Assembly: GCA_049303675.1 (NCBI GenBank)
Contig: JBAQNJ010000001.1
Location: forward strand, 7,494-71,493
DNA: 64,000 nucleotides
Source of the DNA: Microgenomates group bacterium
GTDB lineage: Bacteria; Patescibacteriota; Microgenomatia; UBA12405
Direction: 5' to 3'
Made by a program: the position numbers and the translations under genes
Shown here: piece after piece, positions 18,425 to 40,956 of the stretch
Layout of the letters: each line of letters opens with the position of its first letter
Numbering within the stretch: the first letter of the stretch is position 1
Notes under the pieces: model-generated
The model's input: the letters and a program-made list of their open reading frames with translations, nothing else
Database searches by the model: none
Told to the model about the DNA's origin: nothing

Positions 18425-19459
18425 TTATTTGAAGTGCGTCCCGAAAAAGCCCAAGTCAGCCGCTACCGCCTCATTCCATCCGCCTTTTAGGTTGTGATCT
18501 GCGCCTTCATACACCACTAGTTCTGCCCCAATCGCCCTAGCTACCGGCCGCTGCCATTCTAGTTTTACTTGATTATCTCTATTCCCTTGCTGAATCAATA
18601 CTGGCGCCTTGATCCAATCATAATAATTTTCAAAAGCATAGCGCCGACTGTCATAATGTTTTTGGAATTCCTCTATCACTGCCTTGACCGGACTACCCTC
18701 GTCAATTGTTGACAATACACTCTCCGGAAACGGTTGAGTCATCGGCGCCCACAAAACCGTCGGATAAGACTGCCCCGTAATTTCTAGTACCGACAAAGCA
18801 ATTTGACCCCCATTACTATGTGCCCAAATACCAATCCTATTTTTATCCACCCAAGGCAGTTGTTTAACTGACTCAATCAGATCAAGTACTTCCACTACTT
18901 TATGAAACCGTGCCTCCAACATATCACTTGATTCTGTATCAGAATGTCCATATCCCAAAAAATCCAGACTAATAGTGACATAATTTGGTTTACCCGCCGA
19001 CTGGCGGGCCAACTCATCTGCCACCTTCCAACTCCCCGACCCTACATAATATCCCTCTTTTTCGGCATACCCCCGAATCATGATGATTACTGGTACGAAC
19101 ACGCCATGGCGTGTTCCTACATCTTTTGGCATATTTATCATCCCACTCACCCATTTACCATCACTTTTAAATCTAATTTCTCTGGTTGTAAAGTCGTATT
19201 CTATTGTCCTTCTATCTTCCACTTCGGGAATATTCCCTAAAATTTCCAACTTTCTACTTTCAACTTTATGAACCTGCCTGCCGGCAGGCATGGCTTTATG
19301 AACTCGGCGAAGCTCATCAAAATCATATTTTTCTAAAAAAAAATTATTATTTATTTCTTTTTGTTTTCCTATGGGATTTATTATATTTCTCGGCCAAAAA
19401 TAAAACAGACAACCACCAAACAAAATCAAAAAAAATATTATGCCAATTTTCCTTACCAC
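18425..19459 (-). CDS. membrane-anchored alpha/beta hydrolase (S9/dienelactone-hydrolase-like)
   Basis: N-terminal TM, GIWAHSNGG nucleophile elbow, later D and H (GADHNL). Carries an in-frame 30-bp palindromic insertion (AMPAGRQVHK). Confidence 0.75.
   Translation of the reverse strand: MVRKIGIIFFLILFGGCLFYFWPRNIINPIGKQKEINNNFFLEKYDFDELRRVHKAMPAGRQVHKVESRKLEILGNIPEVEDRRTIEYDFTTREIRFKSDGKWVSGMINMPKDVGTRHGVFVPVIIMIRGYAEKEGYYVGSGSWKVADELARQSAGKPNYVTISLDFLGYGHSDTESSDMLEARFHKVVEVLDLIESVKQLPWVDKNRIGIWAHSNGGQIALSVLEITGQSYPTVLWAPMTQPFPESVLSTIDEGSPVKAVIEEFQKHYDSRRYAFENYYDWIKAPVLIQQGNRDNQVKLEWQRPVARAIGAELVVYEGADHNLKGGWNEAVAADLGFFGTHFK
19264..19303. repeat. GC-rich palindromic mini-element (CTGCCTGCCGGCAGGCATGG) with a 10-bp target-site duplication, inside a CDS
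   Basis: ctttatgaac | ctgcctgccggcaggcatgg | ctttatgaac. 30 nt = 10 codons, in-frame. The protein shows RVHK-AMPAGRQVHK-VES. Confidence 0.8.
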
Positions 19460-20334: not shown

Positions 20335-20399
20335 TCTTCTTTTTCTTTTTTTTCTGTTATACTATCCCTTGTCCTACCGAAGACAGCCGGTTTTCTAGA

Positions 20400-20509
20400 A
20401 ATAGAATATAATTCCTGCCGAGGAACAAATTAGATTTTCTAAATCTACGCCTCGTTCTTCGAGGCTTTTTTATTTTACTTTATAAACTTTCAACTTTACA
20501 AACTAACGT
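20400..20509 (+). promoter_or_regulatory. putative L10 (rplJ) leader with attenuator hairpin
   Basis: Hairpins ttcctgccgaggaa and acgcctcgttcttcgaggc followed by TTTTTTATTTT end 33 nt before the rplJ ATG. The position matches the known L10(L12)4 autoregulatory leader. Confidence 0.5.
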
Positions 20510-21569: not shown

Positions 21570-22100
21570 TTAAAACCCCTCCGGTCCCGCATCTGCGGGA
21601 CCACCTCCCCTTGACGAAGGGGAGCTTTTCAATAAAATCTCTCTTTCTCTAACCACGCTTTCTAATCTATTTCTGACATTATCCAAACCACTCATCAACT
21701 CCCTGCTATTTATTCTAATTGTTAATATATTCAAAATATCAAAATATTTATCTCTCTCATTGTCATAATATTTGTTTCTCAAATGATAGCCTCCGTCAAC
21801 TTCAACAATTAGGAGTAGCTCTGAGCAGTAAAAATCAGCTATAAACTTTCCTATTGGTTTTTGTCTAGTAAATTTGTAACCCAGCCTTCGGTTGTTTAAT
21901 ATTTCATACCACAAAATATTTTCTGTTTTTGTCGAATTAACACGACCTTTTCTAGCTAGGTTTCTCAACGTATCAAGATATTTTAAGTTTTGTCTAGCAG
22001 TCAATGCTTCCACTGGTACTAAATGTTTCACTACGTTATAGTGTTCTGTATTGTCCCCCTTCGTCAAGGGGGATACAGGGGGTTTGTTATAATCCACCAT
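21570..22100 (-). CDS. DUF559 (Vsr-like endonuclease fold) domain protein
   Basis: ...ENILWYEILNNRRLGYKFTRQKPIGKFIADFYCSELLLIVEVDGGYH... is characteristic of DUF559. Both ORF ends run through GC-rich hairpin repeats. Confidence 0.7.
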   Translation of the reverse strand: MVDYNKPPVSPLTKGDNTEHYNVVKHLVPVEALTARQNLKYLDTLRNLARKGRVNSTKTENILWYEILNNRRLGYKFTRQKPIGKFIADFYCSELLLIVEVDGGYHLRNKYYDNERDKYFDILNILTIRINSRELMSGLDNVRNRLESVVREREILLKSSPSSRGGGPADAGPEGF

Positions 22101-37248: not shown

Positions 37249-37744
37249 ATATTCAGTCTAGAATGAATTTATGGTTTGTCAAGACAATAATAATCCGGTA
37301 AAAATAATAAATTAGACCTCTAACATTAATTTACTCATCTGAACCTAATTCAGTTTATAGTTTCTACATCCCCATCCTAATAATAACAACTAATTAAGAT
37401 TGTCCGCTTTCATTCAGTTTATATCACTAATAAAATAATTAGCAGTCAACAAACATATCTGCCAAATCCTATCCACAAAATGTTAACATTTGAATATCAA
37501 TTTATACTTTACTGGTACTTTGTATAGAGTAATACAACAATAACAAAACATCCTATAACCAAAATAATCCTCAAATTCATAATCAAGGTATAATAAATAG
37601 ATAAAGTCAATTCGGGCTGTGCCACGTCATAGCCCGAAGGGCGAAGACGGGGACCTGCCTGCCGGCAGGCAGGTTGGCGCAATTTCAGCCATAGGCTGAT
37701 CGGCCTCTGGCCGAGGCTAGCGCAATATAAATAAGCCTAAACAT

Positions 37745-37818
37745 CGGGGATTGGCGCAATTGGCTAGCGCGCACGGTTCGGAATCGTGAGGTTGCTGGTT
37801 CGAATCCAGTATCCCCGA
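37745..37818 (+). tRNA. tRNA-Pro (anticodon CGG)
   Basis: Cloverleaf: acceptor cggggat/atccccg, D arm gcgc-aattggcta-gcgc, anticodon stem cacgg/tcgtg with loop ttCGGaa, T arm gctgg-ttcgaat-ccagt. No CCA encoded. Confidence 0.85.
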
Positions 37819-37892
37819 CCGTGGGTTGCCGTAGCTTTGCGTAGGCACCCTGAGATACTGGATGAGAAATTTATCCGCCTGTGGCGGAAATC

Positions 37893-38487: not shown

Positions 38488-40956
38488 TTAGTTTGCCAAA
38501 ATCACAAAATTTACCATCCTCCCTTCCACATAGATCTCCTTGCTAATTGTCTTGTCCGCCAGCCAAACCTTCATCTTCTCCGTCTCCTTTGCTAGTTGTA
38601 GAATATTCCTCTTGTCTGTCAACTGTTCACTGTTAACTATTAACTCATCTCTCACCTTGCCGTTAATCGATATCATAATCTTCACCTGATCATCAACAAG
38701 GTATTTTGGGTCCACCACCGGCCATGATTGCTGATGCACTGAATCAATGTGGCCCAATCGGCTCCACATCTCCTCAGCCATATACGGAGCCATAGGCGCA
38801 ATTAATTTAATTAAAGTCTCTACATCATTAACTCGTAACTGATAACTGGTAACTGATAACTCATTCAAAGCTCCCATCAGTTTTGCCACCACAGTATTAT
38901 AACCAAACACCTCCAAATCCCTAGTCACCCCATCAATTAGCTTGTTTATTATCACTTTGACATCACTGTTGCTAGCATTACTTGTATTAATTTGCTCAGA
39001 AATATATTTTTCAAACCTATCTAAAAACCTCTTTACTCCCATTAAAGTATTTTCACTCCATGCCATCGTCCCAGTAAACGGTCCCATAAACATCAAATAC
39101 ATTCGCACTACATCAACTCCATATTTATCAGCTACTACCTCGGGTACTATTACGTTCCCCTTAGTCTTACTCATCCGCTGATTATCTGGGCCGAGTATCA
39201 CTCCATGAGACATTCTCATATAGTATGGCTCAGTTAACTCCTCTGGAAAAATATGAAGATCATATAAGAATTGATATATGAACCTAGAATAGAGTAAGTG
39301 AAGCGTGTTGTGTTCATCTCCACCAATGTATACATCTACCGGTCCCCAATATTTTAATATATCAGAATCTACCAATTTACTATTATTATGTGGATCCATA
39401 TACCTCAAAAAATACCAATCTGATCCAGCCCAATTTGGCATTGTGTCCGTCTCTCTTTTGGCAGGTCCTCCGCACTTGGGACAAGTGCAATTAACAAATT
39501 CGGGTATACGACTCAGTGGACTCAGCCCATCATCAGTCGGTTCATAAGCCTCTACCTCAGGTAACACTATTGGCAAGTTTTCTTCTTTTTCCGGCACCCA
39601 ACCCTGCCCGCCGTGGCGGGCACAACTCTCACAGTAAACCATTGGAATAGGCTCACCCCAATAATGCTGTCGACTAAATATCCAATCTCTCAAATGATAT
39701 TCTACTTTTCTTGTTGCCCACTTATTTTCCACCATCCAATCACTGATGGCCTTATATGCTTCATCTCTTGCCCTCATTCCACTAAATTGTTCTGAATTTA
39801 TCATCACCCCATCCTCAATTACTTTTTCATAGCTATCTATAACATAATTAGGTTTATCTTTTGGGACTTCAACCTGAATCATTTCTAGTCCATATTTTTT
39901 GGCAAACATAAAATCACGACTATCGTGTGGTGCTACACCCATGACCGCACCTGTCCCAAAATTTGCCAATACATAATCTCCCACCCAAACAGGAATTTTT
40001 TTATTATTAACCGGATTAATTACATAACTTCCCGTAAATACCCCAGTTTTTTCTGATGTCCCCGAAGTTCGATCCATTTCACTTTTCTTCTGTGATTCTT
40101 TGATATACTCATCAACTATTTGTCTGTTTTCTTCAGTAACCAAACAATCTAACTCAGGATACTCTGGTGAAACTACTACCCAACTAGTTCCAAATATAGT
40201 TTCCGGATATTTTGTAAAACAACTTATCTTTGTATTATTACCATCAACTACAAAATCAATTATCAAACCCTCTTTTCTCCCAATCCAATTAATTTGTGCC
40301 TGTTTGACCTTGTCAATAAAATTTGTTTCTTTTAACCCGTCAATCAACCTATCGGCATAATCGGTAATCTTGACTACCCATTGTGATATATTTCTCCTCG
40401 ACACTTCACTACCACACCGCTCACATTTATTATCGATAACCTCTTCATTGGCTAAGCCAATTTTACAGCTCGGGCACCAGTTAATCGGCATTTCTTTTTT
40501 ATATGCCAAGCCAGCCTTAAACAACTTTACAAAAATCCATTGCGTCCATTTGTAATAGTTTGGATCAGTGGTATCGACCTCACGGCTCCAATCATAAGAA
40601 AAAGCCAATCGATCCATTTGTGACCTAAACATATCAGTGTTTTCTTTTGTCACCACTTGTGGTTTTTTCTTCATTTTTATTGCAAAATTTTCGGTCGGCA
40701 ATCCAAAAGCATCCCAACCCATGGGAAATAATACGTTATACCCTTGCATCCGTTTAAACCGAGCAAACACATCTCCACCCGTAAACGAAAAGGCATGACC
40801 CACATGCAACCCCGATCCCGACGGATAGGGAAACTCGTTTAAAATATATTTTTTAGGTTTTACCTGCCCGGCAACGGCCGGGTCATCCGCCCTATACAAT
40901 TCTGGATGTTCACTCCAAAATTTTTGCCACTTGGCTTCAATCTCCTTAAAATCCAT
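38488..40956 (-). CDS. leuS: leucine--tRNA ligase
   Basis: ...FPYPSGSGLHVGHAFSFTGGDVFARFKRMQGYNVLFPMGWDAFGLPTEN... HIGH region, KMSKT (RMSKTKGN). 822 aa. Contains in-frame repeat insertions. Confidence 0.95.
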   Translation of the reverse strand: MDFKEIEAKWQKFWSEHPELYRADDPAVAGQVKPKKYILNEFPYPSGSGLHVGHAFSFTGGDVFARFKRMQGYNVLFPMGWDAFGLPTENFAIKMKKKPQVVTKENTDMFRSQMDRLAFSYDWSREVDTTDPNYYKWTQWIFVKLFKAGLAYKKEMPINWCPSCKIGLANEEVIDNKCERCGSEVSRRNISQWVVKITDYADRLIDGLKETNFIDKVKQAQINWIGRKEGLIIDFVVDGNNTKISCFTKYPETIFGTSWVVVSPEYPELDCLVTEENRQIVDEYIKESQKKSEMDRTSGTSEKTGVFTGSYVINPVNNKKIPVWVGDYVLANFGTGAVMGVAPHDSRDFMFAKKYGLEMIQVEVPKDKPNYVIDSYEKVIEDGVMINSEQFSGMRARDEAYKAISDWMVENKWATRKVEYHLRDWIFSRQHYWGEPIPMVYCESCARHGGQGWVPEKEENLPIVLPEVEAYEPTDDGLSPLSRIPEFVNCTCPKCGGPAKRETDTMPNWAGSDWYFLRYMDPHNNSKLVDSDILKYWGPVDVYIGGDEHNTLHLLYSRFIYQFLYDLHIFPEELTEPYYMRMSHGVILGPDNQRMSKTKGNVIVPEVVADKYGVDVVRMYLMFMGPFTGTMAWSENTLMGVKRFLDRFEKYISEQINTSNASNSDVKVIINKLIDGVTRDLEVFGYNTVVAKLMGALNELSVTSYQLRVNDVETLIKLIAPMAPYMAEEMWSRLGHIDSVHQQSWPVVDPKYLVDDQVKIMISINGKVRDELIVNSEQLTDKRNILQLAKETEKMKVWLADKTISKEIYVEGRMVNFVILAN

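Follow-up and report, generated by a model that had tools for sequence, protein, structure and literature searches.

Among the short palindromic repeats described so far, MITEs (miniature transposable elements with inverted repeats; Correia, ERIC, RUP and others) measure tens to hundreds of base pairs, and repetitive extragenic palindromes (REPs) are mobilised by RAYT transposases, which are IS200-like and of the Y1 type. REPs and REPINs are short (about 20-40 nt), GC-rich, hairpin-forming, dispersed and non-autonomous, carry no transposase inside and produce no regular target duplication on insertion (PMC3116915). REPs lie outside genes, are imperfect in their symmetry, have a conserved head of the GTAG type and, like their RAYT, are specific to a species or genus. 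MITEs combine a fixed length of the target duplication with a cognate insertion sequence (IS) that shares their ends, and Rickettsia palindromic elements (RPEs), about 150 bp long and confined to Rickettsia, reside in frame in unrelated housekeeping genes and are tolerated in the protein (PMC10969869). Heterocyst-forming cyanobacteria contain small dispersed repeats, SDRs (Elhai et al. 2008, Genome Res 18:1484, cited in PMC4390886), which are units of a few tens of bases that insert precisely, also into other repeats; SDR5, for instance, sits between the third and the fourth base of the HIP1 palindrome (PMC4390886). In mitochondria, the GC clusters of yeast, the PstI palindromes of Neurospora, the RHE of sponges and the double hairpins of Allomyces are GC-rich palindromes that invade AT-rich genomes and flank or hit tRNA genes. 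These organellar clusters usually measure 30-60 nt or more and form lineage-specific families with AG or TAG duplications; yeast var1 alleles vary by in-frame insertions of GC clusters, whose short terminal repeats are read as target duplications, (PMC8811140, PMC2800124). Some mitochondrial clusters are bypassed in translation, as in Magnusiomyces. The present report concerns a 20-nt palindrome, here named PAL20, and a 21-nt variant of it located within an alpha/beta hydrolase gene of a Microgenomates group bacterium. The gene lies on a stretch of 64,000 nt (assembly GCA_049303675.1, contig JBAQNJ010000001.1, positions 7,494 to 71,493 of the forward strand), referred to as the window; all coordinates are counted from its first base.

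On the plus strand of the window, positions 19264-19303 read CTTTATGAAC-CTGCCTGCCGGCAGGCATGG-CTTTATGAAC, and the 10-mer CTTTATGAAC occurs twice in the 64 kb, at 19264-19273 and 19294-19303. The perfect 10-bp target duplication named in a preliminary description of this DNA is therefore present. It can equally be parsed as a 9-nt duplication, CTTTATGAA, flanking a 21-nt element, CCTGCCTGCCGGCAGGCATGG, at 19273-19293, the tenth matching base being the first C of the element itself. Both parses amount to a gain of 30 nt; given the family consensus described below, the 21-nt element between two 9-nt target copies is the natural one. On the coding strand the site reads GTT CAT AAA GCC ATG CCT GCC GGC AGG CAG GTT CAT AAA, that is VHK-AMPAGRQ-VHK, within the protein context ...RRVHK-AMPAGRQ-VHK-VESRK.

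The host open reading frame (ORF) has matches to the Pfam families Abhydrolase_6, Hydrolase_4 and Peptidase_S9 and possesses an N-terminal helix. A total of 1930 homologues was found, the nearest of them 65% identical (BLASTP). In an alignment of 60 sequences the residues AMPAGRQVHK were missing from all 59 other homologues, in agreement with the initial view of a discrete, GC-rich palindromic micro-element that is in frame and lineage-specific. The homologue P0003 has one VYK where the window protein has VHK twice, hence one VHK is original and the other duplicated (P numbers denote proteins and L numbers loci). The structure of the hydrolase was modelled with AlphaFold2 from 64 sequences (mean predicted local distance difference test, pLDDT, 83.8). 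The insert corresponds to residues 56-65, a coil that follows helix 47-55 and precedes the first strand; pLDDT is below 50 at residues 60-65. The structure check proposed at the outset thus places the insert in a low-pLDDT loop; if read through, it would add AMPAGRQVHK to a variable loop that links the membrane anchor to the catalytic domain. The palindrome is stop-free in every frame. Its 18-mer core, with up to three mismatches, has two matches in the window versus none in shuffled sequences, and the GC content of the window ranges from 34 to 47% in 2-kb steps. As Logan contig L002 matches the window at 100% identity, it offered no polymorphism.

Three collections were scanned for further copies: genome contigs, viral contigs and metagenome contigs. 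The genome scan comprised one genome per species and was queried with the exact 17-mer core, which retrieves extra-base insertions at one position only; it returned at least 120 matches. The PAL20 consensus is a perfect 20-mer palindrome, CCTGCCTGCCGGCAGGCAGG, consisting of two abutting 10-nt inverted arms with no internal sequence. The three scans together yielded at least 260 distinct perfect copies, against a chance expectation of about 0.5 in 596 Gb by our arithmetic, so that the dispersed family anticipated from the window alone exists in abundance. Nearly all of the genome matches listed are full 20-mers, with CC/GG as the two bases outside the 17-mer query in 92-97% of them, and base composition drops to background directly outside CC...GG (120 genome_contigs matches listed). 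Because conservation ends exactly at the edges of the 20-mer, PAL20 is a discrete unit. A candidate feature of the 21-nt variants, an extra base marking the CC/TGCC joint, was dropped as an artefact of the exact 17-mer query.

The hosts among the matches listed span about 12 phyla and include cultured Bacteroidota, phage contigs and metagenomes. According to record titles, the genome matches listed comprise about 34 from the candidate phyla radiation (CPR)/Patescibacteria, 36 from Bacteroidota, 9 from Omnitrophota, 7 from Planctomycetota, about 9 from Gammaproteobacteria/Pseudomonadota, 7 from delta-type lineages and 5 from Nitrospirota, besides Margulisbacteria, Elusimicrobia and others. Cultured carriers within the Bacteroidota are Winogradskyella echinorum (strain KCTC 22026), Flagellimonas yonaguniensis, Aquiflexum lacus, Longitalea luteola, Aestuariivivens sediminis and Agriterribacter humi, and some further carriers are metagenome-assembled genomes (MAGs) deposited as complete chromosomes. 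The exact 20-mer was present in 35 stretches of IMG/VR contigs, several of which hold 2-6 copies, and in at least 120 metagenome contigs; some of the IMG/VR carriers may be proviruses. No publication carrying the sequence was found for the 16-mer core, and a literature search combining palindrome, in-frame insertion and CPR yielded nothing relevant.

This distribution bears on two alternative explanations. PAL20 could conceivably have arisen locally and de novo, by slippage or by correction of a quasi-palindrome, since template switching can make palindromes, and a sequencing or assembly artefact has to be considered as well, since the NCBI and Logan assemblies, 100% alike in their overlap, may share reads and would in that case not be independent. 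Both are effectively refuted: the same 20-mer occurs in hundreds of independent data sets, including cultured strains and complete-chromosome MAGs, coding copies are consistently in frame with contiguous flanks, and mutated older copies exist. Alternatively, PAL20 could be a selected functional motif that spread by recruitment, such as a hairpin acting in RNA stability or termination, a site of translational pausing or a protein-binding site. Such a motif would be in line with 20 nt perfectly conserved over phyla, with the stable RNA hairpin of the consensus (-13.9 kcal/mol) and with the many intergenic copies. However, the locations are arbitrary (protein loops, tRNA fragments, the inside of other copies), the position relative to genes is not fixed and copies decay at orthologous positions (L003 and L005, see below), which makes selection for function a highly improbable cause of the dispersal.

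Several coding copies can be compared with relatives. Locus L161 reads AAA CAG G-CCGTGCCTGCCGGCAGGCAGG-GT TAT where its relative L162 has AAA CAA GGT TAT, a gain of 21 nt. In L004, 21 nt lie between TAT G and AT TTT, and L165 is empty at the same place. L005 carries the 20-mer plus one duplicated C where L164 is empty; in L003 the copy at this place has decayed, with both L164 and L165 empty. Compared with L164, L005 and L003 each show a gain of 21 nt. Within the hydrolase family, PAGRQ was found in 5 of 120 homologues at three different sites, and the nearest relatives of P0043, P0052 and P0048 are all without this insert. Since the closest relatives are empty, either two or three independent insertions took place at the target AAATAY^RNTTTT or there were several losses of the insert. 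Elsewhere, in-frame copies occur in FtsK, another LeuS, ribosomal protein S6 (RpsF), dTDP-glucose dehydratase (RfbB) and HolB. An ancient orthologous insertion shared by L057 and L061 was ruled out, as the proteins differ.

About 20% of the PAL20 copies are located inside long ORFs; perfect 20-mers are mostly outside, versus 9 of the 15 21-nt variants inside (hand tally). The 21-mers of the window hydrolase, L004 and L161 share the same codon phase. The reading frame is restored either by the 21-nt variant or by 20 nt together with a duplication, as illustrated by 21+9 nt in the window, 20+1 nt in L005 and 21 nt plus three heptamers in L035. As the 20-mer alone shifts the frame, the coding copies fit a filtering of random insertions by selection, and with perfect 20-mers lying mostly outside long ORFs the data read better as survivorship than as the earlier suggestion of an element that selects for in-frame insertion.

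Target duplications occur in the family above expectation and are variable in length. Among the matches listed, a perfect duplication of at least 7 nt directly abuts 6 of 260 perfect copies (lengths 7, 7, 7, 7, 8 and 14 nt), compared to 0.06 expected. When one mismatch and small offsets were allowed, a flanking repeat of at least 7 nt accompanied 9 of 98 copies versus 1.2 in controls. Excision of the palindrome in silico joined the flanks into a tandem of at least 18 nt in 24 of 163 cases from the genome and viral sets (control 3.2) and in 19 of the 120 metagenome matches listed (control 2.8). The base before PAL20 equals the base after it in 94 of the 260 copies listed, with 56.6 expected. 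The period of the tandem flanks is mostly 7, followed by 9 or 8, and about 15% of the copies show a period of 7-9. Arrays of 3-5 flank units, and a repeated alternation of unit and palindrome, were present in L035, L107, L126, L147 and L149. Precise insertions without any duplication are found at 37654 in the window and in L004 and L161. The clean target duplication, first put forward as an argument for transposition-like insertion, is thus genuine at the hydrolase and no hallmark of the family; the 9/10-nt duplication of the window fits a family trait, while the usual outcome of PAL20 insertion is none or one base.

As a side observation, the 20-mer often lies within short arrays of locally derived 7-nt tandems, e.g. 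TTCGTAT, AGGTGAA and TCTAAAA (L006-L285), and repeat unit and palindrome alternate in some flank arrays (L126, L132). The 7-nt flank arrays may stem from repeated cycles of insertion and excision or from hairpin-provoked slippage.

The diversity of junctions (0, 1, 7-9 and 14 nt, besides arrays of 3-5 flank units) is in line with the main rival explanation, a templated repair without a dedicated enzyme, in which the strand at a stalled fork switches to a hairpin copy and returns to the same place or a few bases back, re-copying 1-14 nt, so that the palindrome spreads by copy-choice. That no gene was found in association with the copies, that a similar behaviour is seen for many unrelated hairpin families within the same genes and that a 26-nt piece of a neighbouring tRNA gene is duplicated beside hairpins also speak for copy-choice. 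However, the edges are razor-sharp and identical in the 260 copies listed, whereas genomic templates should leave ragged edges, and the 20-mer is identical over about 12 phyla and phage contigs, for which an internal process alone would need horizontal seeding. We consider templated repair unlikely, yet worth bearing in mind. Far more doubtful is an excision footprint, in which a cut-and-paste transposon, with terminal inverted repeats of 10 bp and a target duplication of 9 bp, would have departed and left its two tips behind. The succession of duplication, 10 nt, 10 (11) nt and duplication has the classical form and the tandem arrays of 7-9 nt could represent repeated visits. Against this, most copies are duplication-free, a constant 10+10 nt is not expected, and a search of about 1.3 Mb surrounding the copies, not exhaustive of the collections, revealed no larger element with the ends CCTGCCTGCC...GGCAGGCAGG. 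Solo half-sites in those 1.3 Mb were degenerate or nested copies only.

The second PAL20 copy of the window was located within a duplicated 5' fragment of a tRNA-Pro gene (Table 1). It had been listed at 37655-37676 as a related palindrome; the relationship extends to a perfect 20-mer, and the coordinates required correction. Without its three inserts, the fragment equals nucleotides 1-26 of tRNA-Pro (26/26), the intact gene starting at 37745. The intact gene thus serves as a built-in empty site, and the PAL20 copy at 37654 must have entered as an exact, duplication-free unit. Hence, a single 64-kb window holds both outcomes, a copy with a 9-nt duplication and a copy without any. The perfect 26-nt copy of the tRNA-Pro 5' end begins 97 nt upstream of the gene, with a 21-nt AT-rich spacer between the two, and with three precise hairpin insertions this neutral, tRNA-like target has been hit at very high density.

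Fragments of tRNA 5' ends carry PAL20 in L024, L050 and L157 as well as in the window. A tRNA-Met of the phage contig L150 has PAL20 in its variable loop and is nevertheless recognised by ARAGORN as a tRNA of 92 nt; in L127, a related viral contig, the insertion is the same and 13 nt of the T-arm are deleted. The tRNA-Val of L042 is callable only once PAL20 has been removed. The palindrome is further found in the middle of its own copies (L027, L056), and in L148 PAL20 itself contains other mini-palindromes. By our rough estimate, tRNA DNA and PAL20 itself each account for well below 1% of a genome. Such low shares imply either a strong target enrichment or a strong survivorship in loops.

Table 1 Palindromic inserts and related features of the window
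Feature	Position	Sequence	Remarks
Host gene, membrane-anchored alpha/beta hydrolase (344 aa)	18425..19459, minus strand		three GC-rich palindromic in-frame mini-inserts
Left target copy	19264..19272	CTTTATGAA	10 nt if the C at 19273 is counted; coding strand: second VHK
Inserted element	19273..19293	CCTGCCTGCCGGCAGGCATGG	20-nt consensus CCTGCCTGCCGGCAGGCAGG plus one extra base; encodes AMPAGRQ
Perfect 16-nt palindrome core of the hydrolase element	19275-19290
Right target copy	19294..19302	CTTTATGAA	C at 19303 makes the repeat seem 10 nt
Second hydrolase hairpin insert	18993..19008	CCCGCCGACTGGCGGG	in frame; adds RQSAG (15 nt)
Third hydrolase palindrome	19100..19113	CACGCCATGGCGTG	encodes RHGV, a rare 4-aa insert common to P0002 and P0014
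Perfect PAL20 copy	37654..37673		after nt 6 of the duplicated tRNA-Pro 5' fragment (37648-37723); no duplication
Two abutting 15-nt hairpins	37685..37714	TCAGCCATAGGCTGA, TCGGCCTCTGGCCGA	after nt 17 of the same tRNA-Pro fragment
Intergenic hairpin	37874..37888	TCCGCCTGTGGCGGA	between tRNA-Pro and tRNA-Arg; T-CCGCC-loop-GGCGG-A family
leuS hairpin	39605..39622	TGCCCGCCGTGGCGGGCA	exact 18-nt in-frame insertion; ARHGGQ after the CxxC zinc knuckle
leuS hairpin	40867..40882	CCCGGCAACGGCCGGG	N-terminal variable region; PAVAG, lineage-specific

The comparisons described above show the hydrolase insert to be a copy of a widely dispersed 20/21-nt unit that entered with a target duplication, in frame and in a loop. 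The 30 extra bases are probably one copy of a dispersed, non-autonomous, ultra-short palindromic mobile repeat, represented here by its 21-nt variant. With regard to the mechanism, we infer with moderate confidence that a trans-acting activity places PAL20 into flush or staggered breaks. These DNA breaks would usually be flush or have a one-base stagger and sometimes a stagger of 7-9 bases, the fill-in of which would yield the target duplication. The favoured sites would be DNA that is single-stranded or readily forms hairpins, for example tRNA genes and the middle of other palindromes. A spread of the putative inserting activity among phyla and phages could have brought the same 20-mer everywhere. 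The copy in the hydrolase would have no role for the host protein and would persist as a neutral insert where it landed. A wider and clearly more tentative proposition, which we hold to be possible rather than probable, is that PAL20 is the smallest mobile DNA described, actively inserted into genes, tRNA genes, phages and itself across a dozen phyla, either by a horizontally spreading activity or by a universal host pathway acting on hairpin DNA, and that it belongs to a guild of mini-hairpins which remodel protein loops in small genomes.

A number of observations weigh against a mobile repeat that is placed into breaks. Most copies have zero or one duplicated base and the duplications present vary from 7 to 14 nt, a variability not expected of a single classical transposase. 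The tandem flanks of 7-9 nt could result from hairpin-provoked replication slippage instead of staggered cuts. An all-against-all clustering of 3805 ORFs around the copies revealed no nuclease or transposase family in more than about five loci, and a Pfam scan of 20 further window ORFs returned housekeeping functions only, with no transposase or RAYT. The predicted uninterrupted hydrolase site (...CGAGTTCATAAAGTTGAAAG...), searched as an exact 22-mer, gave no match in metagenome_contigs, and none of the empty sites of three phage-contig copies with clean duplications (L134, L128, L144) was present in viral_contigs. Consequently, a presence/absence polymorphism of the hydrolase copy and these three phage copies was not seen directly, and the age of the hydrolase insertion cannot be measured from a nearest homologue of 65% identity.

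Two contigs stand out by their copy number. The viral contig IMGVR_UViG_3300037242_000417 (L146, L153, L154; 29.5 kb) holds six copies of the 20-mer, some of them within larger repeated units, and the metagenome contig FLOH01000377.1 (L225) holds four copies within 1.5 kb. Both are candidate places to find a mobilising function.

PAL20 is closest in its behaviour to REPs, the cyanobacterial SDRs and the mitochondrial GC clusters. What distinguishes it among the known ultra-short palindromic mobile repeats is its minimal size, its perfect symmetry and its identity across phyla. With REPs and REPINs, it shares the small size, the GC-rich hairpin, dispersal and a non-autonomous nature without an internal transposase, and most of its copies likewise lack a regular target duplication. 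Unlike REPs, PAL20 is a perfect 20-mer without a head motif, its flanks being at background beyond CC/GG; about one fifth of its copies are inside ORFs, and the sequence is identical over about 12 phyla and phage contigs. No RAYT was found among the 20 window ORFs scanned or near the copies, the window covering 64 kb of a 998-kb genome. SDRs resemble PAL20 in their length and in their precise insertion, also into other repeats. They differ in being of other sequences and described from one cyanobacterial group, and they are not reported to be identical across phyla.

The mitochondrial GC clusters share with PAL20 the invasion of AT-rich genomes by GC-rich palindromes and the association with tRNA genes. 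PAL20 also has their in-frame coding copies and an enriched identity of the single flanking bases. In contrast to these longer, organellar families, its hosts are bacteria and phages, its sequence is unrelated to the M, G and V classes of GC clusters, and its coding copies are in frame where some mitochondrial clusters are bypassed. The in-frame copies in the hydrolase, LeuS, FtsK, RpsF, RfbB and HolB are reminiscent of RPEs, and the parallel to these elements drawn in the preliminary description holds as an analogy. It fails for size and host range: RPEs are units of about 100-150 bp that encode a conserved peptide module in Rickettsia, whereas PAL20 measures 20-21 nt and the host here is a member of the Microgenomates (CPR). 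The PAL20 copy in the hydrolase is not a Rickettsia palindromic element. Like MITEs, PAL20 is non-autonomous and has terminal inverted repeats, with a target duplication in the hydrolase copy. Unlike MITEs, it comprises only two 10-nt arms with no interior, most copies have no duplication and a cognate IS was not found in the approximately 1.3 Mb flanking the copies.

If this explanation is true, bacterial genomes, including the minimal ones of the CPR, are seeded by mobile DNA far below the size range of transposon finders. Such DNA would then provide essential proteins with a ready supply of small insertions in loops, as carried by LeuS, FtsK, ribosomal protein S6 and the hydrolase, and could disrupt tRNA genes or give them additional arms. 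Finding one 20-mer in about 12 phyla and in phage contigs suggests either horizontal exchange or an enzymology in common that has no name yet. A sharply defined substrate and several cultured carriers among the Flavobacteriia and Chitinophagia render the mechanism experimentally tractable. PAL20 would also account for recurrent odd peptides (LPAGRQ, PACRQAG and similar) and for spurious indels in alignments of metagenome proteins.

The window contains further mini-hairpins of other families. Two sites in leuS had been considered close relatives of the hydrolase insert. They are lineage-specific in-frame hairpins of the same architecture; their sequence families are different from PAL20, and the extents first given, 39604-39625 (ARHGGQG) and 40866-40890 (PAVAGQ), are replaced by those in Table 1. 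ARHGGQ is a clean 6-aa insertion missing from 119 LeuS orthologues and from the solved LeuS of Thermus thermophilus; PAVAG recurs in two other LeuS orthologues (P0163, P0195). In the hydrolase, RQSAG is missing from nearly all orthologues, P0010 having RQSAD at the same site, and is located in the loop after helix 143-151 of the AlphaFold2 model. Its hairpin affiliates with a CCGCC-loop-GGCGG family seen in about 20 unrelated loci. For the family T-CCGCC-(3-4 nt)-GGCGG-A, 28 copies were counted over about 2 Mb of unrelated loci, and the window has copies at 18994 and 37874.

Rare short inserts in the hydrolase alignment consist to 49% of Gly, Ala, Pro and Arg, compared to a background of 22%. 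Other palindrome-type peptides occur in the same variable regions of P0006, P0009, P0015, P0046, P0019, P0032, P0023, P0050 and P0021, namely VGAGLVPA/VGAGFMPA, GAMHCAR/GATHCAR, GQTHRSAR/GRTHRSAR and PPAG. These orthologue peptides suggest that many more mini-hairpin families may exist in Microgenomates.

A gene for a DUF559 protein (Vsr-like endonuclease) on the minus strand of the window (21570-22100) is bracketed by two inverted copies of CCCCTTGACGAAGGGG, and a third hairpin, GGTCCCGCATCTGCGGGACC, lies at the end of the gene; the hairpins occupy positions 21583-21602, 21605-21624 and 22054-22073. This arrangement recalls RAYT genes flanked by REPs, and the motif CCCGCAGATGCGGG was also present in the unrelated locus L020.

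Two ordinary features of the window were recognised with Rfam: an AdoCbl-II riboswitch aptamer at 1579-1654, which adjoins a cobalamin adenosyltransferase gene and itself follows, on the downstream side, a gene for ribonucleotide reductase, and an L10 leader at 20359-20480 upstream of the L10 gene (rplJ). The GC skew of the plus strand is strongly negative across the whole window, with values from -0.14 to -0.48 in 2-kb steps, a skew much larger than expected for bacteria.

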